The notes under the pieces are model-generated. The model did no database searches. It saw nothing but the letters and a program-made list of their open reading frames with translations, and had not been told where the DNA came from. The position numbers and the translations under genes were made by a program. Shown piece after piece: positions 17,488 through 60,849 of a stretch of DNA of 64,000 bases; within the stretch, counting starts at the first letter, position 1; each line of letters starts with the position of its first letter. This DNA is from Mobula hypostoma (lineage: Eukaryota): contig NC_086108.1 of assembly GCF_963921235.1 (NCBI RefSeq), forward strand, positions 38,690,001 through 38,754,000, in the 5' to 3' direction.

Positions 17488-17603
17488 TTCAAACATCAAC
17501 ATCCTCACTATATGCTGGAACAAGCTAGAGTACATAAACTGCTGTTAAATTTATTAATCCATTGAATTCTTCAGATAAAAAAAACAAGTACTTAAGTTCT
17601 TAC

Positions 17604-18831
17604 CACATTTTCTTTTCTGGAGTCGTTTTCCACCTCCATTCAAGCTTCTTGAAGTGGTCTTCTTCACCACATTTAACTTTGGACTCGGTTGTTCAACACA
17701 CTTTGGCTTTCTTTTATTGGTATGAACACCTTTTTCACATGCATTGTTAGACAAATATTCTGAACTTTTTCTCTTTCTGCTTGGTAGGGATGACCTGTTA
17801 GCAAGTTTAGGACTTCTGTTTTCAGCTTTCGTCTCTACATCAATAGTAGACCTTGACCGTAAACGAGAGTTGACCTCAACAGACTGATTGTTTGAAAGTT
17901 TAACTTTGCTCTCTAATCTGCAATAACCTACAGATGTGTTCTTGTTGTCTGTGGTAGTGAACACAGGAAGCAACTTAGTATGAGCAGTGGACTGATGTTC
18001 TTGTCCACAAGCCTGTGAATTCTCTGCAAGATCAGTCGTTTTAGAATATACAAAAAAGGTTAATCTTGACTTAGCTGGTTTCAATTCTTCCACATTTATA
18101 ACAGGTGATCCAAGCTCTGACATAGACCTTGGACTACTTTCTGGCGACAAAGAACTTTCAGATTTCAAATTTTCAATAGAGGAAGCTTCAACAGACTTTG
18201 ACGAAGGCTGATTCATAGACATCTTTGCATCTTTCAGAAATTGTTCTGGTGATAGCACTGCTGACTCAACAATTGATTCAGCATCTTCATCAGGGACATA
18301 ACTGTCATTTACAAAAGAATCGGGGCTTAAAATCCGCCGTTTGTGAATAGGAGTTTGAGGAGCAGAAGCACAAAGAAAACTTAGTGGTGTTTTATTCAGT
18401 CCAGTCTTCAAAACTTCAGATGTACACAATTCATCAGTCTTTTCCTCATTTTCTAGTCTCCCATCTTTCTGTAATGGCATTCCTCTACCTTGATGGATAG
18501 AGAAGGAACCAAATCTTTTAAGTGATCGTGGAGTACAATTTTCAAGTTCTCTTATTTGACCGGTCGGTAATATTGGTGATATGTGCATTATATCAAAGTT
18601 AGCATAGTCCAAAGCATCCACGGGATGAAGGGGAGGAACTCTTTTGCCAACTGGTCTGAGATTTTCACATGGCTGAAGAGGACTTAAAGGTCGACTTCGA
18701 CCCATTTTCATAAACTCCTTCTTCTGTGGTATGATGATCGTCTTGCTGCCAATTGATGCATTCCTTTTTTGTTTCGACCGAACAGTATTTTCCAAAACCT
18801 TCTTGCCTTTAATTGATTCCCAAAGGCTTCG
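17604..18831 (-). CDS. ASPM: ASPM coding exon 3 (1228 nt, S/T-P-rich disordered region)
   Basis: Starts RSLWESIK; contains RPLSPLQPCEN, RRILSPDSFVNDSY, LSPEQFLKD, KRKSSEY; AG 18833-18832, GT 17603-17602; phase 0->1. Confidence 0.93.
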
Positions 18832-30673: not shown

Positions 30674-31326
30674 TTAATGTTCTACATTGGAAATACTTTG
30701 CACAGATGTACCTGTGTCAAGACCAAGTAAAGTTCCAAGATACGATGGCTCTCTAGGATCTAACATTTGATCATCACGAACTGGATGCACAATATTGGCA
30801 GGTTGTGGTGTAAGGGTATATTTCTCCAGAAAAGCAAGGTCTGTAGCTCTTTGAAAATCAGTTTGCTGAGGAGGCTGCTGGGACTGAAGAAGGTTATGAG
30901 GTTGCGAAACCAAAGTTGCTGTATGCTGTGGAGCATCAGATTGTACTGTGGCAGCACCAATCCGTACTGGTACAAGTGTCACATCTCCATGAATGTTCTG
31001 AATTGCTGTTTTGTTCTCAGTTGAGTAAGCCTTATTTTGATGCAAATAGGATTTAGCATCTGTTTGGTACACTTTGCCATCTTGCGCATACAGCAACTCC
31101 TGAGATACTATTTTCACTTCGGAAACCGCCACTATTGGCTGTTCTATAGGCTTATTGCCATGGACATGATCCATATGATACTTCAGTTTGTCTTTCCGTT
31201 TGAATGTTGCATTGCAATGATGACAGTTGAAGGGGCGGGCATCTGAATGAATAACCATGTGTTTCGTTAAAGTCTTCTGAATACGAAATGCTTGATTACA
31301 AACTTGACATTTATAGGGCTTTTCAC
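30674..31326 (-). CDS. ZBTB41: ZBTB41 last coding exon (two C2H2 fingers plus C-terminal tail, stop 30674-30676)
   Basis: GEKPYKCQVCNQAFRIQKTLTKHMVIHSDARPFNCHHCNATFKRKDKLKYHMDHVH...RATDLAFLEKYTLTPQPANIVHPVR...SYLGTLLGLD; AG 31328-31327. Confidence 0.96.
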
Positions 31327-31901
31327 CTGTAGTAAAAAAAACATTTTAGCTAAGTTTCGTTTTGAGCTTAAATAAAGTTATCATATGCTCAGAACAATTT
31401 TCATCACAAATCTTTTCAGCATAATGGTTTCCCAGGAAAGATCTTAGCAATAGCATTACAGGGTACCTGGAATAATTTTGTGTAATCAAGCCCAAATAAC
31501 TTCAACTCAATTTTAAATTTAAAGAATTTACTGTAAATTTTGTGTTACCTTATAAAAATATTACTAATAAATATAATTGAATGAAAACAAAGTTTAAGAC
31601 TTTCTAAAACCAAAAACAAGTATCCCTAAAATTTCCTTCATCTATGTTGCAGGATCTGGGCTTAAAAGCAAAGGGAACTCTGGAATACACAATGAAGATG
31701 AAATACCAATAATTTAGTATTTTTACTGAAATAGCAGCTAACAGCTGCATTTTTCAAATTGCTATGATGCAAAGGGACACTTGGGACTCCATGACTTTTG
31801 AAAATCTGACAAACAATAAAAAAAATTACACACATTCTTAAACCAGTTATCTGTCAGGATCCAATCAGTAACATAAGGTAATTATAAATGCATACCTTGT
31901 A

Positions 31902-36575: not shown

Positions 36576-36643
36576 ATATATAGATGTAAAATGAACTACA
36601 GATGCAATTTGTCACAAGCATGTTAAGCATGTTATCAGGATAC

Positions 36644-36732
36644 CTGAATGTGTCCTAAAATGCATGTCCAAGCTTGATTTTCCTTTAAATTCTTTTTTGC
36701 ACACTTCACATTGGTGAAGAGTGGCTTTGTAC
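36644..36732 (-). CDS. ZBTB41: ZBTB41 coding exon (89 nt, C2H2 finger)
   Basis: YKATLHQCEVCKKEFKGKSSLDMHFRTHS; AG 36734-36733, GT 36643-36642; phase 2->1. Confidence 0.95.
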
Positions 36733-36949
36733 CTATAATTGGTAAGGAAAAATGTTAGAAGTTTTTGTTGCCATTATTCATACTGCAAAACTTAAGTCAA
36801 AGTTTAATCCAAATAAACTCCTAATTTTAATATTTACCCACTGTAATACAGACTATTGAAATGGTTTTCATAACAGTATCAATGCTGCAGAGTTATTGAT
36901 CTTGCATGTTATTTTCTTCCTCCACTGACAGAAACCAGAAAAACACTCA

Positions 36950-38000: not shown

Positions 38001-38670
38001 GTCAATATTGGGAAGTTAAAATCTGCTGACCAAATCATCCTAATTTTTTTGCAGTTTAAAGCATTTCTCCTCAATGTCACTTTCTCTGCTAGTTTGTATT
38101 ACCTACAAACTTCTTTAACATGTTCCCTTCATTTAACACAAATTATTACTTTGTAACAGAGATAACAGACTAAGCACTGAACATTATGCAGCTCCACTGG
38201 TAATAACTTTCAGACACAGAAGTATCATTTACTCATGCTTTTGGCCATTAAACCAATTTCACATTCAATTTGTCACTCTCCTTTAGTTTTCTCCTTCCCA
38301 ACCTGCCATGTGTAACCTTGTCAAAAACGTGTAATGAAATCCTGAAAGACTACATCAAACATTACACCATCATTGATCTTGTTTGTTACCTCTTCAAAGA
38401 ATTCTGCCCAATTTGGCAGCACGGCCTGATATCTTTAATTCATCTGTGTCACTCTGAACAGTGGCTTATATGACCCTTAGATTTGACACCATTAATCTAA
38501 CCAACACAAGTTAAACTAATTGGCTTGTATTTAATATATCTCTTCCTGCTTTTTAACATTACACCATTTAACAGTGCTACAATCTTTGAGAACTACAGTA
38601 ATTTTAAGTAACATACATCAAAGTTGCTGGTGAACGCAGCAGGCCAGGCAGCATCTATAGGAAGAGGCGC

Positions 38671-38706
38671 AGTCGACGTTTCAGGCCGAGACCCTTCGTC
38701 AGGACT
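38671..38706 (-). ncRNA. Minimal type I hammerhead ribozyme (PLE)
   Basis: Reverse complement AGTC-CTGACGA-AGG(GTCTCGG)CCT-GAAA-CGTC-GACT. Confidence 0.88.
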
Positions 38707-39001
38707 AACTGAAGGAAGAGTGAGTAAGGGATTTGAAAGCTGGAGGGGGAGGGGGAGATGCAAAATGATAGGAGAAGACAGGAGGGGGAGGGATGGAGCC
38801 GAGAGCTGGACAGGTGATAGGCAGAAGGGGATACGAGAGGATCATGGGACAGGAGGTCCGGGAAGAAAGACGGCGGGGGGGGGTGACCCAGAGGATGGGC
38901 AAGAGGTATATTCAGAGGGACAGAGGGAGAAAAAGAAGAGTGAGAGAAAGAATGTGTGCATTAAAAAGAGTAACAGATGGGGTACGAGGGGGAGGTGGGG
39001 C

Positions 39002-40290
39002 CTAGCGGAAGTTAGAGAAGTCAATGTTCATGCCATCAGGTTGGAGGCTACCCAGACGGAATATAAGGTGTTGTTCCTCCAACCTGAGTGTGGCTTCATC
39101 TTTACAGTAGAGGAGGCCGTGGATAGACATGTCAGAATGGGAATGGGATGTGGAATTAAAATGTGTGGCCACTGGGAGATCCTGCTTTCTCTGGCGGACA
39201 GAGCGTAGATGTTCAGCAAAGCGGTCTCCCAGTCTGTGTCGGGTCTCACCAATATATAAAAGGCCACATCGGGAGCACCGGACGCAGTATATCACCCCAG
39301 TCGACTCACAGGTGAAGTGATGCCTCACCTGGAAGGACTGTTTGGGGCCCTGAATGGTGGTAAGGGAGGAAGTGTAAGGGCATGTGTAGCACTTGTTCCG
39401 CTTACACGGATAAGTGCCAGCAGGGAGATCAGTGGGGAGGGATGGGGGGGACGAATGGACAAGGAAGTTGTGTAGGGAGCGATCCCTGCGGAATGCAGAG
39501 AGAGGCGGGGAGGGAAAGATATGCTTAGTGGTGGGATCCCGTTGGAGGTGGCGGAAGTTACGGAGAATAATATGTTGGACCCGGAGGCTGGTGGGGTGGT
39601 AGGTGAGGACCAGGGGAACCCTATTCCTAGTGGGGTGGTGGGAGGATGGAGTGAGAGCAGATGTACGTGAAATGGGGGAGATGCGTTTAAGAGCAGAGTT
39701 GATAGTGGAGGAAGGGAAGCCCCTTTCTTTAAAAAATGAAGACATCTCCCTCGTCCTAGAATGAAAAGCCTCATCCTGAGAGCAGATGCGGCGGAGACGG
39801 AGGAATTGCGAGAAGGAGATGGCGTTTTTGCAAGAGACAGGGTGAGAAGAGGAATAGTCCAGATAGTTGTGAGAGTCAGTAGGCTTATAGTAGACATCAG
39901 TGGATAAGCTGTCTCCAGAGACAGAGACAGAAAGATCTAGAAAGGGGAGGGAGGTGTCAGAAATGGACCAGGTAAACTTGAGGGCAGGGTGAAAGTTGGA
40001 GGCAAAGTTAATAAAGTCAACGAGTTCTGCATGCATGCAGGAAGCAGCGCCAATGCAGTCGTCGATGTAGCGAAGGAAAAGTGGGGGACAGATACCAGAA
40101 TAGGCACGGAACATAGATTGTTCCACAAACCCAACAAAAAGGCAGGCATAGCTAGGACCCATACGGGTGCCCATAGCTACACCTTTAGTTTGGAGGAAAT
40201 GGGAGGAGCAAAAGGAGAAATTATTAAGAGTAAGGACTAATTCTGCTAGACGGAGCAGAGTGGTGGTAGAGGGGAACTGATTAGGTCTGG
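39002..40290 (-). CDS. 5'-truncated PLE ORF: RT C-terminal half plus GIY-YIG endonuclease (open frame)
   Basis: GVAMGTRMGPSYA, LRYIDD, CKRNKCYTC linker (Neptune-like), VIYCVRCSRCGLLYIGET; frame open upstream of the listed Met to the junction. Confidence 0.9.
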
Positions 40291-40298
40291 ATTAATCT

Positions 40299-41411
40299 AT
40301 GTTCCGTGCCTATTCTGGTATCTGTCCCCCACTTTTCCTTCGCTACATCGACGACTGCATTGGCGCTGCTTCCTGCATGCATGCAGAACTCGTTGACTTT
40401 ATTAACTTTGCCTCCAACTTTCACCCTGCCCTCAAGTTTACCTGGTCCATTTCTGACACCTCCCTCCCCTTTCTAGATCTTTCTGTCTCTGTCTCTGGAG
40501 ACAGCTTATCCACTGATGTCTACTATAAGCCTACTGACTCTCACAACTATCTGGACTATTCCTCTTCTCACCCTGTCTCTTGCAAAAACGCCATCCCCTT
40601 CTCGCAATTCCTTCGTCTCCGCCGCATCTGCTCTCAGGATGAGGCTTTTCATTCTAGGACGAGGGAGATGTCTTCATTTTTTAAAGAAAGGGGCTTCCCT
40701 TCCTCCACTATCAACTCTGCTCTTAAACGCATCTCCCCCATTTCACGTACATCTGCTCTCACTCCATCCTCCCACCACCCCACTAGGAATAGGGTTCCCC
40801 TGGTCCTCACCTACCACCCCACCAGCCTCCGGGTCCAACATATTATTCTCCGTAACTTCCGCCACCTCCAACGGGATCCCACCACTAAGCATATCTTTCC
40901 CTCCCCGCCTCTCTCTGCATTCCGCAGGGATCGCTCTCTACACAACTTCCTTGTCCATTCGTCCCCCCCATCCCTCCCCACTGATCTCCCTGCTGGCACT
41001 TACCCGTGTAAGCGGAACAAGTGCTACACATGCCCTTACACTTCCTCCCTTACCACCATTCAGGGCCCCAAACAGTCCTTCCAGGTGAGGCATCACTTCA
41101 CCTGTGAGTCGACTGGGGTGATATACTGCGTCCGGTGCTCCCGATGTGGCCTTTTATATATTGGTGAGACCCGACACAGACTGGGAGACCGCTTTGCTGA
41201 ACATCTACGCTCTGTCCGCCAGAGAAAGCAGGATCTCCCAGTGGCCACACATTTTAATTCCACATCCCATTCCCATTCTGACATGTCTATCCACGGCCTC
41301 CTCTACTGTAAAGATGAAGCCACACTCAGGTTGGAGGAACAACACCTTATATTCCGTCTGGGTAGCCTCCAACCTGATGGCATGAACATTGACTTCTCTA
41401 ACTTCCGCTAG
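40299..41411 (+). CDS. Inverted second copy of the truncated PLE ORF (RT plus GIY-YIG)
   Basis: 370-aa ORF nearly identical to 39002-40174 (NAIPF vs NAISF). Confidence 0.9.
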   Translation: MFRAYSGICPPLFLRYIDDCIGAASCMHAELVDFINFASNFHPALKFTWSISDTSLPFLDLSVSVSGDSLSTDVYYKPTDSHNYLDYSSSHPVSCKNAIPFSQFLRLRRICSQDEAFHSRTREMSSFFKERGFPSSTINSALKRISPISRTSALTPSSHHPTRNRVPLVLTYHPTSLRVQHIILRNFRHLQRDPTTKHIFPSPPLSAFRRDRSLHNFLVHSSPPSLPTDLPAGTYPCKRNKCYTCPYTSSLTTIQGPKQSFQVRHHFTCESTGVIYCVRCSRCGLLYIGETRHRLGDRFAEHLRSVRQRKQDLPVATHFNSTSHSHSDMSIHGLLYCKDEATLRLEEQHLIFRLGSLQPDGMNIDFSNFR

Positions 41412-41706
41412 GCCCCACCTCCCCCTCGTACCCCATCTGTTACTCATTTTTATGCACACATTCTTTCTCTCACTCTTCTTTTTCTCCCTCTGTCCCTCTG
41501 AATATACCTCTTGCCCATCCTCTGGGTCACCCCCCCCCGCCGTCTTTCTTCCCGGACCTCCTGTCCCATGATCCTCTCGTATCCCCTTCTGCCTATCACC
41601 TGTCCAGCTCTCGGCTCCATCTCTCCCCCTCCTGTCTTCTCCTATCATTTTGCATCTCCCCCTCCCCCTCCAGCTTTCAAATCCCTTACTCACTCTTCCT
41701 TCAGTT

Positions 41707-41742
41707 AGTCCTGACGAAGGGTCTCGGCCTGAAACGTCGACT
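41707..41742 (+). ncRNA. Minimal type I hammerhead ribozyme (PLE); predicted cleavage after C41738
   Basis: Stem I AGTC/GACT, CTGACGA box, stem II AGG/CCT, GAAA box, GTC site. Confidence 0.88.
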
Positions 41743-42730
41743 GCGCCTCTTCCTATAGATGCTGCCTGGCCTGCTGCGTTCACCAGCAACTTTGATGTAT
41801 GTTGCTTGAATTTCCAGCATCTGCAGAATTCCTGTTGTTTGCGTAATTTTAAGTATTTTACTTTACTGCTGCCACACACGAAGAAACTAATTTCATGACC
41901 TATGTGAGTGATGATAAACCTGGTAGTAATATGGGTCTCTATTGTGGACTGAGAGTGGGAAGGGGACAGGGAAAGGGGAATGATGTTTGGAAAAGGGGAA
42001 GGGAGAGGGGAGGGAGCGGGAAGCACCAGAGGGACATTCTGTAATGATGAATAAACCAAATGTTTGTAATCAAATGACCCTGCCTGGTGTCTAGGGCTGG
42101 GTATGTCTGCACCTGTGCCACCCTTTGCCCCTGGCACTCCTTCTCTGCCACCTGTCCCACCCACCATTCGTGGCTCTCTACCCTCACCATTCCTAACATC
42201 CTTTGCTCCCTCAACATTTACAAACTCGCTCTCTCCTCCATGTTGACAAAATAATTGTCTGAACCTCAGCATTTTCTTCACTTGCTAACTTTTAATTAGC
42301 TGGGATGCATTTCAATCATGACTGGCAACTTATTCATATTCAAGGATGCTAAAGATCTTAATACTTTTTCTTTAAGAACATTATCCCATTCAATAAATTT
42401 ATTTGCATCCATCTGAATAACCACACTAGTGTCATCATCCAGTTTGGTGAAAACAGCTGTGAAATATTCTTTGAGATCCTTGGGCTCCATACATGGAAGT
42501 CTTTTTGGTCCATAAAATCATCAACCCTTTCCTTTGTTATCCTCTCACTACATTGTACTTGTAAAATATATTTTGATTTTATTTACCAATTTTTTTTCAT
42601 ACTCCCTATTTTCCTAATTTCCTTTTTAAATCCTCACCTAGATTTACTATACATATTTTCCAGTTTCTGCTATACTAAGCCCTCTGTCTTACAAAACGTT
42701 CCCTTTTTGCCTTGCTATGCCCTCTCTGAC

Positions 42731-43040: not shown

Positions 43041-43503
43041 TGACACTACAGCCGACCACAAGTGGGATTCAGCTCCTTCCATTGCTCAAAATAATTTGTT
43101 GGAAGTTTGCAAAATGACCTTCAAGGTGAGTTGCAAAGCTACCTTTTTGGTAAATTAATCTGTTTTTAAATTTCAAGGTATATACAGGCTTGAAGCTTTC
43201 ATCTATGGTCACCGTTCCACTCGGGCCCAACAGGTGAATAAATGTCTAAGATCCAATGAGGGTAAGAACATTAAAAGGTACCATTCAGGCATTTTAGAAA
43301 TTGAAGTTGACAACAGCAGATTGAAAAACAGGATAAAATAAAATGAGGGAAAAGAAACTTAAGGGAAAAGTATGAAAGGAACATGTGATTTTAAAGAAAT
43401 TGCATAATTATTTTAATTTTATTTAAAATATCGCAAGATTTCTTTCCCCATAAACTTCAAATATGATTATTTAAATTTCAAATTCTGCAGGTGTTTTACT
43501 TAC

Positions 43504-43609
43504 TTCTGCCAGACTTTTTCTCCCAAGTGAACACTTCTGTAATGAACACTGAGATGATCCCTACGACCAAAACACTTTCCACATTCTTCACATTGATGAG
43601 CTTTTTCTC
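43504..43609 (-). CDS. ZBTB41: ZBTB41 coding exon (106 nt, C2H2 finger)
   Basis: [38 protein letters not shown] 43611-43610, GT 43503-43502; phase 1->2. Confidence 0.95.
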
Positions 43610-44691
43610 CTTTTGGATAAAACAAAAAAAATGGATTATATAAATTCCAGCTGATTTAAAATGTCTCTTCCAAAGCTGACCAGAGTTAAATGGAAAAACA
43701 ACAAAAACTTGTAAATAAAAAATACATATATTGTGAAATGTAGTCAAGTGACATAAAAATCCTTTACATTAGTATTTACCAGAGAGAACACGGAGGATAA
43801 GGAGATCAGTGCCGAGTGTATTGATATGCTTAGACATTTCGAGGTAAAGGAGGAGGTAGTATAGGATCAATAAGGAGCATTAAGGTGGATAAATCCCCAT
43901 GGCCTGATGGGACATACCCCAGGTTATTGCGAGAGGCAAGGGTTCAGATTACTGAGGCCGTAACCAATATCTTCATGTCCACTCTAGACACATGCGATGT
44001 CCCAGTGGACTATTGAGTAGCTAATATTGTTCAAGTAATCCAAAAGGAAACCAGGGTTAATCATGGAAACTATAGACTGGTGAATCTCATGCCACAGATA
44101 AGGAAGTTAGTGGAGAGAATTCTTAGGTTTAGGATTTATGAGCAATTGGAAAACCATGGCCTAATTAGGGAGAGTCAGCATGGCTTTGTGCGGGACAAGT
44201 CATGTCTTACTAAATTGACTTATTTTTTGGACGAGGTGACAAGGGTGATTGATGAAGTTAGAGCGGTGGATGTTTGCGTGGATTGTACTAAGGTGTTTGA
44301 CTAGGTCCCTCATGAGAGGCTCATCCAGAAGATTAACATGCATAGGATCCATGGTGATTGGCCATTTGGATTCAGTACTGGGTTGCACATAGAAGACAGA
44401 AGGTAGTGGTCAAAGGAACTTATTCCAGCTGTAAGTCTGTGACTAGTGGTGTCCAACAGGGATCTATACTGGAACCTCTGGTGTTTGTAATGTTATATAA
44501 GTGACCTGGATGAACTTGTAGATGGGTGGGTCAGTAAGTCTGTAGATGATACAGAGGTTGGCGGTGTTGTGGATAGCATAGAAGACTAGCAAAGAATATA
44601 GTGGGATACAGACCAGTTACAGATATAAGCAGAGAAATGGCAGATTGAGTTTAACCCGGACAAATGCAGCTTGGTAGGTCAAATGTCGGTA

Positions 44692-46445
44692 CAGGTGTCT
44701 CCCGCTTTTCGAACTTTCGCTTTACGAAACCTCACTGTTACGAAAGACCTACATTAGTACCCTGTTGTCGCTTTCAGAAGGTGTTTTCACTGTTACGATA
44801 AAAAAGCAGCGCGCGCCCCAAGCAGCCGCTCTCCCAAGATTCGGAACTGCGTTCTCACCGGCATTGCTTAAACACGTGCCTGTGAGCAGTCGTTTGCAAG
44901 ATGAGTTCTATGGTATCGATAAAGCCTAAAAGAGCTCGTAAGGGTGTTACACTTAGCGTAAAACTAGACATAATTAAGCATTTCGATCATGGCGAATGAA
45001 GTAAGGAGAAAGTGAGTTTGGCTTGTGGAAGCCGACAAACATGATGGTGAAGAGGTTTTGGCATCCCATGACCAAGATCTGATAGATGAAGAGCTGATGC
45101 AATTGGAAGAAAAAAGGATAACAATCAAAACCAAATGCAGTAGCGAACTGAACGTGAAGCAACTGCATGAGATTTTTGCTGCAATGATAAAGTACAACTT
45201 TAATTTTGAAAGGGTACGTAGGTTTAGGGGATATTTGCAAGATGGTTTGAGTCCTTACAAAGAACTGCGTGATAGAAAAATGCGCAAGGCTCAGCAGTCA
45301 AGCAAGCCTTCCACATCAGCCACAGCAGATGACAAACCTCGACCTTCGACATCGAGGCGGGCAGAGATAGAAGATGACCTGCCTGCCCTAATGGAAACAG
45401 ACGACAAGATGACACCCCAGTGTCCCACCACCCCAACCCCAGGCCACGGACAGATACCAATTCGCAGACAATGCAGCGGTAGCCGGGAGGGACACAGCAC
45501 ATCTTTAAGAAAAAAGCTGAAATAAACATGCTAATTAGTTAGGTGCCACCCGACATGTAATTGTCGGTCCAGATCAGAGACGACGCAATCGGAAGTTGGC
45601 ACTGATCTGGACCGACAACTACATGCCGGGCAGCACCTAATTAATTAAAGTTGCTGGTGAACGCAGCAGGCCAGGCAGCATCTATAGGAAGAGGCGCAGT
45701 CAACGTTTCAGGCCGAGACCCTTCCTATAGATGCTGCCTGGCCTGCTGCGTTCACCAGCAACTTTGATGTATGTTGCTTGAATTTCCAGCATCTGCAGAA
45801 TTCCTGTTGTTTGCACCTAATTAATTAGCATGTTTGTTTCGGCTTTTTTCTTAAAGATGTGCTGTGTGCCTCCCGGCTACCGCTGAACCCCTGCATGCTT
45901 CGCAGATCAGTATCGGTGGGTGGCCCGGAGGGTGGGGGCCACTGCACCACCCCAGCTTGCGACGACTCAGCCTAACACACCATCATCAGTGTGCTCAGCG
46001 CTGTCTTCCGATTCCCGTAAGTGATACTACACTGTACATACGTTATTTCTACTTTATATAGGCTGTGTATTTTTACATGTTATTTGGTATGATTTGGCAG
46101 CTTCATAGCTTAAAGGTTACTGGAGTGCGCTTGCGCTGTGTTTTTGCCAACAGCGCTTGTGTGAGATTTTCGCTACGGAGAACAGTGCAGTAATGATTGT
46201 GGAACAGTATTTCTACTTTATATAGGCTGTGTATTTATCATATCATTCCTGCTTTTACTATATGTTACTGTTGTTTTAGGTTTTATGTGTTATTTGGCAT
46301 GATTTGGTAGGTTATTTTTGGGTCCGCGAACGCTCACAAAATTTTCCCATATAAATAAATGATAATTGCTTTTTCGCTTTACGACATTTCGGCTAAGGAA
46401 CCGTTTCATAGGAACGCTCTACCTTCGGATGGCGGGGCAAACCTG
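44692..46445 (+). mobile_element. Internally deleted Tigger/pogo-like DNA transposon
   Basis: TA flanks; imperfect TIRs CAGGTGTCTCCCGCTTTTCGAA / TTCGGATGGCGGGGCAAACCTG; N-terminal HTH-psq remnant KRARKGVTLSVKLDIIKHFDHGE (from 44901) joined to a C-terminal remnant (ORF 45025-45525). Confidence 0.85.
45647..45814. mobile_element. ~165-bp PLE mini fold-back (perfect 45-bp stem, partial hammerhead)
   Basis: Stem 45647-45691/45721-45765; PLE tail; TSD GCACCTAATTAATTA (45633-45647, 45813-45827). Confidence 0.9.
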
Positions 46446-47673
46446 TACACTATTAAGAGCAAGACCCTTAACAGTATTGATGAGCAGAGAGATTTTGGGT
46501 CCAAGTTCATAGTTTCTTGAAAGTAGCAGCACAGGCTGATGGAGTCGTTAAGAAGGCATATGGCATGCTTGCCTTTATTAGTTGAGACACTGAGTTCAAA
46601 AGGCAGGAAGTTCTATTGTAGCTTTATAAAACTCTAGTCAGGTTGCATCCAGAATTCTGCATACAGTTTAGGTCGCCCCCTTATAGGGAGGATGGTGAGG
46701 CCTTGGAGAGGGTGCAGAAGAGTTTTACCAGGATGCTGCCTGGATTAGAAGGCATGTGCTATCACGAGCCACACTCAGGTTGGAGGAACAACACCTTACA
46801 TTGCATCTGGGTAGCCTTCAACCTGACGGCAAGAACATTGACTTCTCTAACTTCTGTTAATGCCCCTCCTCCCCTTTGAACCCCATCTGTTATTTATTTA
46901 TTTATTTATTTATTCATTCCTTTTTTTCTATCTCTCTTTTTTCTCCCTCTGTCCCTCTCACTATAACTCCTTGCCTGCTCTCCCCCATTCTTTCTCCCTA
47001 GGCTTCCTGTCCCATGATCCTCTCCCTTCTCCAGCCTTGTATTCCTTTTGCCAATCAACTTATACACCTCAGAGGTGATCTCTCTGAGGTAGTATAAGAT
47101 TATGAGAGGCACAGCGAGAATACAGACAGTATTTTTTCCCCCAGAGTTGGAATGTCTCATACCAGAGGACATGCATTTAAGGTGAGAGAGGGTACGTTCA
47201 AAGAAAGTGGGGGCAAGATTTTTTTTTTTTACAGAGAGTGGTGGGTGCCTGGAATATACTGCCCAGGGAGCAGGTGGAGGCAGATACATTAGGGACTTTG
47301 AAGAGACATTTAGATTGGCACATGAATGTGAGGCAAAGGGAAGGATATGGATATAATGTAGACAAAAGGGATTAGTTTAGTTGGTTATTTGATTATTAAT
47401 AAAATTGGTTTAGAACAACATTGTGGGCTGAAGGGCCTGTTCTTGTGTTGGACTGGTCTGTTTTATGTTTTTTATTCATAAAGTTAATTCAGCTACAGAA
47501 GCCAAGAAATTAAAAGCTGTCTTCAAGTGAAATCACGTGAGGCATGTACCGTATAGCCTACATTATAATAAGGGCAAACAACAGGAATTCTGCAGATGCT
47601 GGAAATTCAAGCAACACACATCAAAGTTGCTGGTGAATGCAGCAGGCCAAGCAGCATCTATAGGAAGAGGCGC

Positions 47674-47709
47674 AGTCGACGTTTCAGGCCGAGACCCTTC
47701 GTCAGGACT
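47674..47709 (-). ncRNA. Minimal hammerhead ribozyme (PLE)
   Basis: Identical 36-nt motif on the minus strand. Confidence 0.88.
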
Positions 47710-48675
47710 AACTGAAGGAAGAGTGAGTAAGGGATTTGAAAGCTGGAGGGGGAGGGGGAGATGCAAAATGATAGGAGAAGACAGGAGGGGGAGGGATAGA
47801 GCCGAGAGCTGGACAGGTGATAGGCAAAAGGGGATACGAGAGGATCATGGGACAGGAGGTCCGGGAAGAAAGACGGGGGGGGGGGTGACCCAGAGGATGG
47901 GCAAGAGGTATATTCAGAGGGACAGAGGGAGAAAAAGGAGGGTGAAAGAAAGAATGTGTGCATAAAAATGAGTAACAGATGGGGTACGAGGGGGAGGTGG
48001 GGCCTAGCGGAAGTTAGAGAAGTCAATGTTCATGCCATCAGGTTGGAGGCTACCCAGACGGAGTATAAGGTGTTGTTCCTTCAACCTGAGAGTGGCTTCA
48101 TCTTTACAGTAGAGGAGGCCGTGGATAGACATGTCAGAATGGGAATGGGATGTGGAATTAAAATGTGTGGCCACTGGGAGATCCTGCTTTCTCTGGCGGA
48201 CAGAGCGTAGATGTTCAGCAAAGTGGTCTCCCAGTCTGCGTCGGGTCTCACCAATATATAAAAGGCCACATCGGGAGCACCGGACGCAGTATATCACCCC
48301 AGTCGACTCACAGGTGAAGTGATGCCTCACCTGGAAGGACTGTTTGGGGCCCTGAATGGTGGTAAGGGAGGAAGTGTAAGGGCATGTGTAGCACTTGTTC
48401 CGCTTACACGGATAAGTGCCAGGAGGGAGATCAGTGGGGAGGGATGGGGGGGACGAATGGACAAGGGAGTTGTGTAGGGAGCGATCCCTGCGGAATGCAG
48501 AGAGAGGGGGGGAGGGAAAGATGTGCTTAGTGGTGGGATCCCGTTGGAGGTGGCGGAAGTTACGGCACCTGTCCAGCTCTCGGCTCTATCCCTCCCCCTC
48601 CTGTCTTCTCCTATCATTTTGCATCTCCCCCTCCCCCTCCAGCTTTCAAATCCCTTACTCACTCTTCCTTCAGTT

Positions 48676-48711
48676 AGTCCTGACGAAGGGTCTCGGCCTG
48701 AAACGTCGACT
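48676..48711 (+). ncRNA. Minimal hammerhead ribozyme (PLE)
   Basis: Identical 36-nt motif. Confidence 0.88.
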
Positions 48712-51700
48712 GCGCCTCTTCCTATAGATGCTGCTTGGCCTATTATAATAAGGGTCTACTTTATGTTTTAGTAACACGTCGTTGCATGCGCTATTAAGTG
48801 CGTATTGATCTGTATGTGTGTGCCAAGTTCGGACTCTACCAGTTAAGAACCATGAAACTTAGTTCCCGTCTCCAGCATTTTTATTGATAACATAGTTGTG
48901 TAAACAGGCCACATACCCAACAAATCGGCGACGAGAATTATGAACCCACATCTTATCGGAACACCGTGTTTCAGTTGATAACGAAACTTGGAGAAGAGAG
49001 AGAAGGGAGATGAAAAGGAGCGACTCATGCATCTAGACGGAGTGCGCTCGTTGCACTAGCAAAAAGGACACGTGAGTCAAGTGGAATGTGCAGAGACTGC
49101 AAGGAGCTAGCTAAAAAGAAAACAAGGAAAAAACGGGACTAAATTAACATAACAAAGATGGCGATGATTGGAACCATTACAGCATTTGATAGTGGCATTG
49201 AAAACTGGATAACTTACACTGAAAGAGTGGAGTTATATTGTGATGCTAACGGTGTTAATGATGAAAAGAAAACCAACGTCTTACTCAGTATTATGGGAGC
49301 ACCATAAGGCCTGCTACGGAGCTTGTTAACCCCTGAAAAGCCAGCTGACAAAACGTTCAAGCAAATAGTAGACACTCTCCAACAGCATTTAAACCCCAAA
49401 CCACTGGTCATTGCTGAAAGATTTAAATTTCACTAATGGAAACAGAGCAAAAATGAAAGCATTTCTGAATATTGTGCTGAATTGCGCAAATTATCAGAAC
49501 ATTGTCAATTTGGAGCTGGTCTATCGGACGCATTGAGGGACAGGTTAGTGTGTGGCATGCACTGTGAAGCCACACAGAAGAAGCTCCTATGTGAAAAAGA
49601 CCTTACATTAGAGAAGGCGCTGAACATTGCAATATCATTGGAAACAGCAGCAAGGAGTGCTTCAGAGATACAACAAAAATCTGTGGAATATGCTACAAAT
49701 AAAATGTCACTGAACAGAAATGAAGGAAAGAAATGTTATCGTTGTGGGAACATGTCACATGACCCTGAGGACTGTTGGTTTAAAGACAAAGAATGCAGAA
49801 ACTGTGGCAAACAGGGCCACATTGGCTGAGTATGCAAAGCTAGTAAACAGCAGAAAAAGGACAAAATACAGAGAAACAAGAAACCCCAGAAAGGAAAACA
49901 GAACAATGTACACAAAATGGAAGAAAGCAGTTCTGATGAAAACAACTCAGACAAAAGTAAATTGTCTTGTCTGCAACTTCACAGCATGAAAGAGACAAAT
50001 GATCGAATAGTAATATGGATCACTCCACAAGTGGCAGGCGTGAGACTGAAGATGGAGTTTGACACAGACTCAGCTTTAACAGTAATCTCTGTACACGACT
50101 ACAATTGACTGTTTTCTCACATACCTCTGAAATGAACTAAGCTACTGTTAAAGACTTACACAGGACAGAGAGTGCGTCCCAAAGGTAAAATTAAAGTGAC
50201 AGTGACCTATGGAGACAAAACACAGCAGCTGAACCTCTATGTACTGAAAAATGGAGGACCACCACTGCTGGGACGTGAATGGCTCAGGAAAATCCAGTTG
50301 GACTGGCACACCATCAAGGCACTAGTTGTGTCAGCAAAGGAGGGCAGCAAGGCTACATCTGAGAGACTGTCACAAATACTTGCTGACTCTGAGGGAGTGT
50401 TCATGAAAGGAATAGGAACACTTCAGGGCATGAAGGCAAAGATTGAGATTGAGGAAAATGCATGTCCAAAATTTCACAAAGCCAGACCAGTGCCATATGC
50501 AATCCGTCCTACAGTAGAGGCAGAGCTGAAAAATCTGGAGCAGACCGGGGTCCTGATAAAGGTAGATTGGAATGAATGGGCCGTGCCTATTGTTCCAGTG
50601 ATGAAGAAAACCTCCAGCACAAAACCAAGAAAACCAAGCAAGGTGCGCATATGTGGAGACTTTAAAGTGACTGTTAACCCAGTTCTCCGCACAGTACAGT
50701 ATCCTCTACCTCGTATTGAAGACATCTCTGCTTCCCTGTCAGAAGGGGAACATTTCACAAAAATCGATTTGGCCCAGGCTTATCTCCAAATGGAAATTGA
50801 AGAAGCATCCAAGAAATACCTGACAATAAATGCACACAAAGGACTTTACCAGTACAACAGGTTGGTGTTTGGGATAGCCTCAGCGCCTGCAATCTGGCAA
50901 AGGGCAATGGACCAGGTCCTGCAGGGGATTTCAGGGACTCAGTGTTACCTGGATGACATCATTGTCACCAGCAAAGATGATGACGAACATCTTTCTAACC
51001 TTGAACATGTGCTCACCAGGTTACGAGAATATGGGCTCAGAGCTAATCGACAGAAGTGAGTTTTTCAAAAAGGAAATCTCATACTGTGGACATGTGATCA
51101 ACAAGGATGTCTTACACGTCTCAAGACAAGATAAAAGCGGTAATTAAGGCACCACCACCTGAAAATGTGTCTCAACTGAGAGCATATCTTGGACTAGTGA
51201 ACTACTACCGCAAGTTCTTGCCTAACTGATCCAGTCCTATACTCACTAAATGCACTATTACAGACAGGGACACAATGGAAGTGGACTGAGAGGTGTGATA
51301 AAGCGTTTCAAGAAACTAGAAGACTCATAACTTTGGAAGGGGTGCTCACGCACTTTGACCCCTCCTTACCAACCCGACTGGCTTGTGATGCCTCACCCCA
51401 TGGGATAACAGCTGTGTTTTCACACAGGTTTCCAGATGGTTCAGAAAGACTAACAGCCTTTGCCTCAAGAACACTAACTTCAGCTGAACGCAACTACGCA
51501 CAGATTGACAGAGAGGCCCTAAGCCCCGTGTGGGGAGTCAAGAAATTCAGTCACTACCTGTATGGTCAAAAGCTTACCCTGCTGACTGACCACCAGCCTC
51601 TCGTGTCAATTTCCAATTCAAGAAAAGGCGTTCCAGTGATGACAGCACAAAGGCTGCAGTGATGGTCTCTTTTCTTAGGAGGTCACAGGTACGACATTGA

Positions 51701-53756
51701 ACACAAGGGGACCAAGCAACACGGCAATGCAGATGGTTTGTCACGTTTACCACTGCCAACTTCAGAGATAACTACACAAATGGATTCAGCAAAGGTCTTT
51801 CACACAAGAATAGTTGAACAATTACCAGTGACAAACAGCCCCATTGAAAGGGAAACATGCAATGACCCTATGTTGTCTAAAGTGTATGATACCATGGTGA
51901 AGGGATGGCCAGCGTGTGGTAACACACTGTTTCTAGCCTTCTCTGCAAGGAAGGAGCAGTTGTCAGTGTGTCGAGGAACACCAATGTATGGTTCACGAGT
52001 TGTGATTCCTCCCAAGCTACGCACCAGAATGCTGGAGGAACTGCATAAGGGGCACCTGGGTACCGTGAAAATGAAAAGTCTTGCCCGTGCCTATGTGTGG
52101 TGGCCAGGAATCCATAAACAGATTAAGGACTTGACCAAGAACTGCTCTGGATGTCAAAAGATCCAGAACACACAAGCCCCTCTCCATCCATGGGAGTGGC
52201 CCTCATCACCATGGCAAAAGTGCACATCAACTTTACTGGACCATTAATGGACGTTATCTTTTTAATCGCCATCGATGCACATTCCAAATGGCCAGAGGTC
52301 ATCAAAATGAAAACAACCACATCAGAAAAGACCATTACAGTTCTGAGGACCATGTTTGCCAGGAATGGCATACCAGAACAAATCTGCACAGACAAAGGAC
52401 GAAAATTTGTCTCTGAAGAATTCCAAAGTTTTGTGAAGAACAATGGAATCAAGCACTTTACATCTGCTCTTTACCATCCATCCACAAATGGTTTGGCAGA
52501 AAGATTTGTATAGACATTCAAGAAAGCCATCAAGGCAATGGACAGTGAAAATCGACCACTACAACGCAAGATAGACAACTTCCTCCTTGTCTATCATAAT
52601 GCAGTACATGTAACCACTAATCAGACTCCAGCGATGATGTTTCTGAACAAGAACCTGAAGTCCCGCATGGATCTTCTCAAACCAGATGTACGGCGTGATG
52701 TGGAGAACAGACAGTTCAAACACTTGAATGCTAAGTCAACACGGAGCTTCAGTGTGCGACAGTTAGTTCTTGCACATGATTACTGGACTGAAAAGTGGCA
52801 GCTGGGTACAGTTTCCACCATGGATGGGCCACTGATGTATACAGTGAAGGTGGGAGAGAACTTATGGAGACGTCATGTGGACCAAATCCTGGATGCTTAG
52901 GTGAAAAACACAACAACACCTTGTCGGACTCTCCTGACATAGAAGCAAGCACTCCTGATGTGACCACATCGGCCTCATCTACAGGTAAGCCTGTCATCAG
53001 TGCTGATGACCCACCTGAGGTACCTATGGAGACTCACTCCCCAAAGCAAATGTTTCAGGACAGACGTTACCCAGAGAGGCAGAGAAGACCTGCCCAGAGA
53101 CTTGAGTTATAAATGGGTCTTAGACCAAAAGTTTAAAAAAAAGCTCGTTATAATTTGATATTATTAAGTCACTTTGTTATAATTTGTAAGTAAATGGTAG
53201 GCACTTGTATGTTAAGGGTACACATATTTGTTTAGCATAGTGCCCCAGTAAAAAAAAAGTTGATACACTATTAAAATAAAAGGGGAGGAGTGTACTGTAT
53301 AGCCTACATTATAATAAGGGTCTACTTTATGTTTTAGTAACACATCATTGCATGCGCTATTAGGCGCGTATTGATCTGTATGTGTGTGTCGAGCTCGGAC
53401 TCTAACAGTAAAGAACCATGAAATTTAGTTCACGTCTCCAGCGTTTTTATTAATAACATAGTTGTGTAAACAGGCCACATACACAAGGCAGAAACTAAAA
53501 ATTTCAAAATGTAAAGGCGATAAAGTGAGGAAAAATGTAATTAATATTAGTGATTTAAAGCATTACTAATTTGTAGGTAAAACATTTTTGACAAAGTCCC
53601 ATATGGGAGGCTAATCTGGAAAAGTTGAGTCACATGGCATTCAGGATGAGGTAGTAAATTAGATTCAACTTTGGCTTAGTGGGAGAAGCTAGACAGTAAT
53701 AGTTGATGGCTGTTTCTTTGACCCAGTACCCAGAGTCCTATGCCCAGTGGTAATCA

Positions 53757-56455: not shown

Positions 56456-56531
56456 TCAGAAATCCAGCTGACAGCTACGAAGGCAAAGAGGGAATCACAA
56501 AGGCATCTGTTTCTCCATCAGAATATGTTAC

Positions 56532-56638
56532 CTGAATGGGTTCTTCTATGTTTGGTGAGATGGTCATGGCGAATAAAAGTTTTCCCACATTCTTCACATT
56601 CATAACGCTTGTCATCATGATGTACACGGAGATGTAAT
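56532..56638 (-). CDS. ZBTB41: ZBTB41 coding exon (107 nt, C2H2 fingers); upstream exons lie beyond the right edge
   Basis: LHLRVHHDDKRYECEECGKTFIRHDHLTKHRRTHS; AG 56640-56639, GT 56531-56530; phase 2->1. Confidence 0.95.
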
Positions 56639-57287
56639 CTAGTAACAAAATATTAATTTATAAAAGTGCTTCAAGCAACATTTCTTGCTACTTTATTATC
56701 AACCATATAAAATGGAAAAATAACTCGCTGATTATATGAATTCATTTTGTTGAGAAAAATTTCAATAACTAGAATAAATTTAAGTAATTTGCATAACCTA
56801 TCTGCTGAAAATACTCCCTAAAAAGTTGCCAATACCACTGAAAGTTTAGAAAGCAATCTTGTGCTTCTACTTAAAAGCAGCAACTAAGAATGTATAAAGA
56901 TGGTGTTTTTGAGCAATAAAATCGTCCCATGACAAAGACACTGAAGAAGACATTGACTATAACTCAGCATTCAACATTATCATCTCCTTGAAACCAACAC
57001 TGTAGTTATGCTTGTTGATGATATCACTGTTACTGGTTGAAACAAAGTCGACAATGAAATGGCATATAAGAGGGAAATTGAAAATCTGTTTGAATGATAC
57101 CAGAACAATACGTCTAACTCAATATCCATGGAACCAAACAGCTAATTATTGATTATAGGAGGAGGAAGTCAGAGGTCCAGGAGCCACTCCTCATTAGGGG
57201 GCATAATCATATCAGAGAATCTGTCCTGGGACCAACACAAGAAGGAATGACAAGCACCACCTCTACTTTTTTAGAAATTTGCAGATT

Positions 57288-58673: not shown

Positions 58674-60041
58674 ACATGTACGTATTTTGACAATAACTTT
58701 ACTTTCACTTTGATATAACCACATAGACTTATAGAGCTTCACAACGGTGTCACTTTTAAGATACACAAGTTTATTTTAAACAAAGCTAATTTACTGTCAA
58801 TCGATTATTCAGATTTACCATCGCAACATTTCTACTTTGCTAGTTAAAAATTAAAGCTACCAACTATAACTGAAAAATGCCACCACCAACTGCAACGCAC
58901 TGTAAATATTAACTTTACAAATGTGTGAGATCCTAGTAAACAATCAGTGGATGTCAGTTACAAACCTATTTTTAACCATGTGAGGTTTAAAAATCTGCAA
59001 CATTGAACCTTGTTATAGCACTGCGGGGAAATCATCATTCTGGAGGAAGTCAGACAGCATCTCTGGAGGGAAATGTCTCTGACACCCTGCATCAGGACTA
59101 GAAAGAAAGCAGATACCTGGCATAAAAGAGTGTGGGGAGGAGTTAAAGCAAGAAGGATAAGAGAGGTAAGAAGGGGAGGGGATTAAGAATGATGAAAGAG
59201 GGCTCGGTGGTGATAGGCAGAACTGACAAAGGGCTGAAGAAGATGGAATCTGAATGGGGAAGATAGTGGACCATGAATGAAAGAGGAGGAGATGAGGAGG
59301 GGAACCAGAGGGAAGAATGTGTAGGTGATGAGCACATCAAAAGAGTGAGGGAGGGGAAAGGGGTGATGGGACCAGTGGGATAAGGTAGAACAAAAGATGT
59401 AGGTCAGGGAGGGAAGAGAAACAGAGAGGAGTGGTTATTGAAAATTATGTTCTTGCCATCAGGTTAGAGACTGCCAAGGCATAATTCAAGGTCTGTTCCT
59501 CTAATCTGCATCTTGTATCAATTTGGCAGTAGACAAGGCTGTGAGCAGACAAGTCTATGTTATAATAGGAAGTGGAATTAAAATGGTTAGCCACTGGGAG
59601 AGTATGGCCAGTATGGTGAATGGAGCAAAGGTACTTAACAAAGTGATTCCTCCAAACTGCATCAGATCTCGCCAACATCCATTATCCATTACATCATTTC
59701 AAGTTTAGCCCTGGTAGTTTCCAGCCTGATGGCATGAACATCAATTTCTCTAATTTCCACTAACCACTTCTCCATTCCCTGCCCTCCCCAATTACTTTTG
59801 TTTACCTATATCTCACCAGCCCCATCACCCCTTCTCTTTCCCCTCCCTGGCTCTCTCAATCTGCTCATCACCCACAGATTCTTCCTTCCATTTCCCCTCA
59901 TCTCCAACCTTTATTGTATAGTCCAATGTACTCTCCCATCAGATTCCATCTGCCTATAATCCCCAGCTGTTTACATCATTCCCATTCTTCCCCATCCCCA
60001 CTTGCCTATCCTCCCCCAATCACATGGATTCACCCATCATT

Positions 60042-60217
60042 CATAAAAGTTGCTGGTGAACGCAGCAGGCCAGGCAGCATCTCTAGTCCTGACGAAGGGT
60101 CTCGGCCTGAAACGTCGACTGCACCTCTTCCTAGAGATGCTGCCTGGCCTGCTGCGTTCACCAGCAACTTTTATGTGTGTTGCTTGAATTTCCAGCATCT
60201 GCAGAATTCCTGTTGTT
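60042..60217. mobile_element. ~172-bp PLE mini fold-back with an intact hammerhead in the loop
   Basis: Perfect 45-bp stem 60042-60086/60131-60175; TSD TTCACCCATCATTCA (60029-60043, 60216-60230). Confidence 0.9.
60085..60120 (+). ncRNA. Minimal hammerhead ribozyme (PLE)
   Basis: AGTCCTGACGAAGGGTCTCGGCCTGAAACGTCGACT. Confidence 0.88.
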
Positions 60218-60849
60218 CACCCATCATTCACCAGCTCTTGCTTCAGCCCCTCAACTGAGCCTTTTATAACAGCTCTCTACTCTCCTTCTAATCCTGATAA
60301 AGGGGTTTAACCCAAGACATCGGCTGTCCTTTCCCTCCAAAGATGCTTCCCCACCTGTTGAATTAGTTCAGCATTAAATTACCCACCCTGCCACGCCGCC
60401 AACCCCCACTACTTTATCACTACCTGTCAGTCACCTTACGTAGCCACTCCTGCGCCTAGCATCAATTTATGAACGTGCAATCAATGTATATAAGCTATCT
60501 TATGTATTTATATTTATTGTGCTTTTCTATTATCATTGCGTTTTTTTAATCTTATTGTGCTTTTGTGCTGCATCAGATCCAGAGTAACAATTAATTCGTC
60601 TCCTTTAGACACATGTACTGGAAATGACATTGTACAATCTTGAATCTTGAATTTTGAGTGTTGGTCCAGATTTCCAGCATCTACAATCTTTCTTGTTTCT
60701 CCATGACATCATCACTGCTGGTTTACATCATGACCAGTTAATAATCTTCATATCTGGTATATGCTATTCAATGCACTGGGCCACAGCTACATCAGGAATT
60801 TTATTTTGTTTTATTTGCTGATCTAGGCATTCATGGATAGGCTGGATTT

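Follow-up and report, generated by a model that had tools for sequence, protein, structure and literature searches.

The 172-bp insertion near position 60,100 of the window (the whole stretch of DNA analyzed here, 64 kb) carries a hammerhead ribozyme motif in the loop of a long perfect hairpin, which raises the question of whether it belongs to a ribozyme element that spreads by itself or is a truncated end of a larger retroelement. Its structure, its parentage and three siblings of the same build can all be read from the window, and together with contigs from sequencing runs they lead us to a reading that we hold with considerable confidence: the 172-bp unit is a very short 5′-truncated head-to-head insertion of an abundant Penelope-like element (PLE) with a Neptune-type linker, likely formed in one event and likely immobile, whose hammerhead is predicted to be a silent passenger.

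The insertion is built on a stem of 45 perfect pairs (60042–60086 with 60131–60175) that encloses a 44-nt loop, and the whole unit lies between two copies of a 15-bp direct repeat (TSD) separated by 172 bp. As a control, 300 mononucleotide shuffles of the surrounding 1.3 kb (59500–60800) gave a longest perfect inverted match of 26 and a longest direct match of 13, and a direct repeat of at least 15 bp appeared in 0 of the 300; the RNA fold of the hairpin element had a z score of −12.9, with 0 of 200 shuffles folding equally well. The hairpin, the TSD and the length of the unit, which the original prediction had described from the sequence, are thus confirmed at every coordinate and supported by the shuffles, as is the claim of a TAG microhomology at the inversion junction, where the two arms overlap by 3 nt. 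The outer 2 bp of the stem fall inside the left TSD copy, and the element's own inverted arm therefore measures 43 nt. The arm ends are 42 nt apart, and a 40-nt tail follows the right arm of the stem (Table 1).

Table 1. Positions of the 172-bp insertion, its parts, its siblings and its surroundings in the window.
Feature	Position	Strand	Details
Left TSD copy, 15 bp	60029..60043	+	last 2 nt match the PLE too
Inverted tail-less PLE arm	60044..60086	−	parent +57 to +15 from the predicted cut site; 0/43 differences from the forward arm
TAG microhomology, 3 nt, at the head-to-head junction	60084..60086	+	
Forward tail-bearing arm	60084..60215	+	last 132 nt of the PLE 3′ end (pLTR)
Minimal type I hammerhead	60084..60121	+	helix I 60084-88/60117-21; core CUGACGA 60089-95; bulged A 60096
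Hammerhead, continued			helix II 60097-100/60105-108 (G10.1-U11.1); GAAA 60109-12; loop 3 absent (ACGU self-complementary); cut predicted after C60116
One-sided tail	60176..60215	+	not in the inverted arm; family modal ends at 60183/60184 (+67/+68) and 60211/60217 (+95/+101)
Right TSD copy, 15 bp	60216..60230	+	first 2 nt match the PLE too
Host site, older decayed PLE 3′ end	59708..60347	+	66-72% like the old inverted arm 59056-59480
Sibling A	38598..41855		3232 bp; 1.5-kb inverted arms; 13-bp TSD; RT C-terminal part, CX4CXXC linker, GIY-YIG
Sibling B	45633..45827		165 bp; 15-bp TSD; 4-nt junction microhomology; hammerhead core lost
Sibling C	47562..48754		1167 bp; 13-bp TSD; minus-strand tail arm; junction microhomology 0 nt
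C2H2 zinc-finger exons of one gene	30674-31345, 36615-36773, 43503-43655, 56521-56652	−	
Long exon-like ORF	17554-18831	−	

The parent is an RT/GIY-YIG retroelement. The forward arm matches the 3′ end of sibling A, the longest copy, at 97% identity and the corresponding stretch of the RT/GIY-YIG-coding copies in the window at 96–97%. The ORF of sibling A contains YIDD and GVIY...YIG and gives a Pfam GIY-YIG match of E 4e-4 and 21.1 bits, just below the 22.6 cut-off. Upstream of GIY-YIG the linker reads CKRNKCYTC, which fits the CX2-5CxxC motif that Craig et al. 2021 (PMC8557442) name as characteristic of both Neptune and Nematis, and judged by this motif the parent PLE carries a Neptune/Nematis-type linker. 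The parent hammerhead sits 300 nt downstream of the stop codon. A PDB sequence search with the parent ORF as query returned 0 matches, and patterns of the PLE family had 0 matches in viral_contigs and metagenome_contigs. A MITE would have terminal inverted repeats at both ends, a TSD of fixed length and a DNA-transposon parent. The 172-bp insertion resembles such an element in being short and non-coding with an inverted repeat and a TSD, but on the right its inverted repeat stops short of the end, with the 40-nt tail beyond it, the TSD varies in length within the family (13, 15, 13 and 15 bp in A, B, C and the 172-bp insertion), and every base derives from the 3′ end of the RT/GIY-YIG element. 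This retroelement parentage refutes descent from a DNA transposon, to which we assign next to no probability, and it bears out the proposal that the unit looks like a MITE but is retro-derived from a PLE end.

All four family insertions in the window pair an inverted arm that lacks the tail with an arm that has it, inside a single TSD of 13–15 bp, at lengths of 165, 172, 1167 and 3232 bp and with four different junctions. Counted from the predicted cut site, the tail arms end at +99 to +104 and the tail-less arms at +34 to +64, and 6 of the 7 testable outer ends share 1–2 nt with the TSD. Over the span shared by the two arms of an insertion, no differences were found in B (0/44), C (0/176) or the 172-bp insertion (0/43). 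The inverted arm of the last differs from sibling A at 2 of 43 positions, and since its arms are identical to each other, both came from the same source variant. A second source subfamily, as first proposed, is supported by three positions at which the 172-bp insertion differs from both A and C; its letters at 60134 and 60172 are common among aligned parent-family contigs, so the seemingly ‘private’ variants are those of an ordinary subfamily. Smaller even than the 172-bp insertion, sibling B has lost the CUGACGA core, which means that small hairpin insertions form without an intact ribozyme and that neither the small size nor the hairpin needs one. The original prediction had left the choice between a truncation product and a self-propagating ribozyme family; siblings of the same build from 165 to 3232 bp, with different junctions and one lacking the core, speak for truncation, whereas self-propagation gained no positive support.

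To account for this build, we propose that the PLE RT-endonuclease would nick both target strands 15 bp apart and that each nick would prime cDNA on the element RNA, starting near +100 (the tail end) for one cDNA and near +58 (an internal site) for the other, with the 2-nt matches to the target helping the priming. The two short antisense cDNAs would then meet and join via the 3-nt TAG match, such that the hairpin would exist because the same 43 nt were copied by both cDNAs, and the hammerhead would lie in the loop because the longer cDNA halted just beyond it. In vitro, the PLE protein PAc was shown to cut both strands of the target and to extend both (Frangieh et al. 2024, PMC11167929), and in the same report reverse transcription starts at two sites bounding a 30–40-nt tail and hammerhead cleavage is dispensable. 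An inverted 5′-truncated copy with a one-sided tail is described as typical of PLEs (Craig et al. 2021, PMC8557442), and a curation guide too lists inverted truncated copies and tails among the standard PLE features (PMC8969392).

The run contigs place the ends of the family where two such start sites would put them. Contigs of 4 runs, out of 23 listed, were aligned to 59850–60449, with 58,702 from run X1 alone, and their summed depth, which is not a copy number, reached millions over the element vs 12–42 on the unique flanks; the parent PLE family is clearly very abundant. The loose ends listed in the DNA runs X1 and X5 pile up at the two modal positions given in Table 1 and define two 3′-end classes of the family 27–34 nt apart, a spacing that matches the 30–40-nt tail between the two RT start sites. 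The tail-less arm of the 172-bp insertion stops 8–10 nt short of the modal end, and loose ends upstream of 60084 read as normal parent pLTR. Two further runs, presumed to be RNA, contained the parent family and gave no cover of the unique flanks, which speaks neither for nor against expression.

The same evidence bears on a snap-back route, in which a single tail-primed cDNA would stop just past the hammerhead, pair its 3′ CTA with its own TAG and extend itself into the inverted arm, still yielding a one-off PLE truncation. Self-priming has been proposed for palindromic junctions (Arkhipova et al. 2013, PMC3846280), and the identity of the arms within each short insertion, private variants included, fits it as well as it fits two primers. 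The junction microhomologies of the 172-bp insertion (3 nt) and of B (4 nt) also agree with it, but C has 0 nt; moreover, snap-back by itself leaves unexplained why the inverted arm stops 27–34 nt before the tail end family-wide, and it is two RT start sites with both-strand extension that have been shown in vitro (PMC11167929). Two primers are favored by the constancy of the tail-less end class and by C, whose junction has 0 nt of microhomology, and we regard snap-back as a possible but doubtful origin. By either route, the 172-bp insertion would be a one-off product.

Whether the hairpin is real at all can be addressed with organism B, the source of run X5. At the left border its contigs continue from the flank into 23 nt of the inverted arm, with 5 differences in 217 letters and below a 31-letter bridging rule; at the right border they link tail and flank, with 1 difference in 242 letters. 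This match suggests that the 172-bp insertion occupies the same site in a second organism and predates the split of organisms A and B; no empty-site joint occurred among the 15 joints listed of 81. One could suspect a misassembly, or a plain PLE copy that was later rearranged, from the facts that perfect palindromes can be assembly errors, that assembly problems at such structures have been noted (Craig et al. 2021, PMC8557442) and that no listed contig spans the whole element. Against this, contigs of two organisms cross both borders of the unit, between unique left flank and inverted arm as well as between tail and right flank, and a single clean 15-bp TSD surrounds both arms; we consider such an explanation very improbable.

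Fourteen of the 15 joints (again the 15 listed of 81) connect an inverted arm to a forward arm, at differing places and in 1–2 contigs per run each. Six of these 14 fold-back-like joints were found in both X1 and X5, although the sides of the joints are only 20–26 nt, short-sided joints often stem from repeats and the intervening letters are known for 1 of the 14. Some joints are deeper than a single copy would be (about 48–51 vs 12 in X1; 43, 46 and 174 vs 6 in X5), which means that repeated junctions, or inflated contig depths, occur; among the contigs listed, none crosses the junction of the 172-bp insertion itself. The deepest is an X5 joint from 60082 to 60135, a fold-back with 5 extra letters that has a depth of 174 vs about 6 on the flank and is absent from the X1 listing; either organism B may have several copies of this junction or the contig depth may be inflated.

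We then turn to the ribozyme motif itself. The core of a minimal type I hammerhead is complete (C3 U4 G5 A6 N7 G8 A9 / G12 A13 A14 A15.1 / U16.1 H17), helices I and II are present and positions 15.2–16.2 are palindromic. The motif had been placed at 60085–60120 with a 2-nt overlap with the stem; it is real, but helix I can be 5 bp, which makes the overlap 3 nt. The G10.1-C11.1 pair is missing, as position 11.1 is U and forms a G-U pair; G10.1-C11.1 is described as highly conserved, not absolute (Cervera and De la Pena 2014, PMC4209133). Complete cores in the window lie at 38702, 41711, 47705, 48680 and 60089, the first four in two insertions and accompanied by a partial core at 45.7 kb, so that the three other copies first reported become four other complete cores and one partial core. 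In each of the five complete cores, position 11.1 is U (G-U) and position 7 is C. This permits mispairing of the core with the cut-site strand, at a modeled probability of 0.98–0.99 in the 38-nt motif, and this mispairing may be an off state common to the family. Rfam gave no match of any kind at the gathering score in the window and no hammerhead match at E up to 10 over 59900–60400. The 6 matches it did give there at E up to 10, all far below gathering, were rejected: one is to an lncRNA model, and the other five are to microRNA-precursor models of the sort that match any long hairpin. ‘Intact’, the word used for this hammerhead at the outset, is therefore correct for the core bases, all of which are present, but not for a motif that lacks loop 3, has U at 11.1 and goes unmatched by Rfam.

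Folding models predict that the active fold of this motif is disfavored in the 172-nt RNA. Without a loop, A15.1-C-G-U16.1 makes helix III possible only between two molecules, and the long stem occupies 3 of the 5 helix I bases, with pairing probabilities of at most 0.002 for helix I and at most 0.005 for helix II. The open hammerhead fold costs 8–9 kcal/mol in the 172-nt RNA vs 4–5 in the forward arm alone. A hand-built double-hammerhead dimer with exchanged arms came to −178 to −179 kcal/mol vs −197.6 for two monomers treated alike, that is, about 18–20 kcal/mol above them. The parent pLTR fails hammerhead folding equally badly in the same model, so the low folding is not particular to the 172-bp copy, and these models leave out tertiary contacts and protein help. 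Single minimal hammerheads are reported not to cleave and multimers to cleave at low levels (Cervera and De la Pena 2014, PMC4209133), and in Anolis the PLE hammerhead requires addition of its protein to cut (Frangieh et al. 2024, PMC11167929). The hammerhead of the 172-bp insertion is predicted to be silent and unable to cut alone. Among the run contigs, some end a copy at 60116–60122, at or just past the predicted cut, and restart at 60084–60086, a head-to-tail doubling of the ~35-nt hammerhead core, with the 60119 to 60085 joint seen in 3 contigs in X1 and 2 in X5. Such doubled cores are candidates for the smallest dimers of the minimal ribozyme to occur naturally.

For the unit to found a self-propagating non-autonomous fold-back family, it would need to be transcribed, have its RNA processed by the ribozyme and be inserted anew by the PLE enzyme. 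The insertion does keep both RT start regions and all hammerhead core bases, a few other junctions have above-single-copy depth, pLTR sequences alone have been mobilized in trans in a rotifer (PMC3846280), and tandem retrozymes reportedly derive from pLTRs (bioRxiv 10.64898/2026.07.22.740005). However, a search of the 64-kb window that allowed up to 3 mismatches matched its junction once, the siblings differ in junction and grade in size, and both outer ends match the target by 2 nt, as expected from priming at this site. There is also only one hammerhead, of a dimer-dependent type, and cleavage would strip the inverted arm of its partner context and could not regenerate the unit, while the apparent sharing of the insertion with a second organism means that it is not fresh. 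We thus judge self-propagation improbable. About as improbable, if not slightly more so, is a specific version in which this junction founded a mini-element family copied in trans by the Penelope enzyme, with paired transcripts swapping their 43-bp arms so that two minimal hammerheads face each other and cut as a dimer. Our literature search found no report of a self-propagating fold-back PLE mini-family, nor of this PLE family in cartilaginous fishes, in a corpus that leaves most subscription papers outside and whose supplements could hold examples this short. A 19-nt junction pattern had 4 matches in metagenome_contigs, none of which continued into the remaining element, and these were taken as chance.

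The 172-bp element is nested in an older, decayed head-to-head PLE pair (59056–59601 and 59708–60347), ~65 nt before a decayed hammerhead-like remnant near 60294–60330, and is thus a PLE inserted into a PLE end. When compared with the old mirror arm by local BLAST, the host site gave a spacing of 98 vs 88 nt after subtraction of 187 nt. Siblings A, B and C lie between zinc-finger exons, and B sits in the AT-rich end of another element (45474–45885) that has its own inverted repeats with 73-nt and 53-nt arms and is possibly a non-autonomous DNA transposon. Judged by eye, ORF fragments at 50136–52247 look like the decayed pol of a Gypsy-type LTR retrotransposon, with RT-, RNase H- and integrase-like parts. 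The window looks vertebrate, with C2H2 zinc-finger exons on the minus strand at 30.7–31.3, 36.6–36.8, 43.5–43.7 and 56.5–56.7 kb; these and the long exon-like ORF presumably correspond to genes resembling ZBTB41 and ASPM. If the zinc-finger gene extends beyond 60 kb, its pre-mRNA would hold the hammerhead in antisense.

The 172-bp hairpin is therefore a real feature and likely an ordinary dead insertion of an already known PLE build, not a new self-spreading element. As a single locus it is of little importance; what it offers is a small, clean record of PLE integration, with two target-matching ends, a one-sided tail and a microhomology junction, and a census of fold-back units of this kind could separate two-sided priming from snap-back, a step left open in the available portion of the PAc study (PMC11167929). 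Its significance would rise if the junction proved multi-copy, as it would then be a non-tandem fold-back ribozyme element spreading by itself, and if the arm-swapping dimer were true it would be a head-to-head counterpart of the tandem retrozymes.

Among known systems, non-LTR retrozymes (Li et al. bioRxiv 10.64898/2026.07.22.740005; review PMC7761336) share with the 172-bp element a non-coding, pLTR-derived sequence, a type I hammerhead and a size range of 150–300 nt. They are described as head-to-tail tandem repeats with at least two hammerheads and circular RNAs, whereas this element is a single head-to-head unit with one minimal hammerhead; the head-to-tail tandem with at least two hammerheads by which retrozymes are recognized is absent here. 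The label ‘retrozyme-like’ accordingly gains no positive support from an insertion that has one minimal hammerhead, no tandem units and a motif that is not predicted to fold. The motif is closer to the min-HHRs of metazoan PLEs (PMC4209133), with which it shares the conserved core, a 4–5-bp helix I, a bulged base after A9, palindromic 15.2–16.2 and no loop 3, and from which it differs, in all five complete window cores, by a short helix II (4 bp) and a G-U instead of a G-C pair at 10.1–11.1. Min-HHRs are reported to occur mostly as single dispersed motifs of truncated PLEs (PMC4209133).

With PAc (Poseidon of Anolis carolinensis, PMC11167929), the proposed route has in common that both strands are cut and extended, that two RT start sites bound the tail and that the upstream hammerhead is not needed for insertion. 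PAc belongs to the Poseidon clade and has its hammerhead at the ORF start, whereas the parent here has a CX4CXXC linker of the Neptune/Nematis type and a hammerhead well past the stop codon; the available part of the PAc study gives no model for the joining of the inverted unit. A further likeness is to the insertion units of endonuclease-bearing (EN+) PLEs, which have an inverted 5′-truncated copy and a one-sided 30–40-bp tail (PMC8557442; Pen2a_Av, PMC3846280). The 172-bp insertion departs from these in its TSD, 15 bp against 8–10 bp in the rotifer examples, and in arms of only 43 and 132 nt, which leave it without coding sequence, but it shares their head-to-head arms, one-arm tail, single TSD around the unit, strong 5′ truncation and junction overlap.
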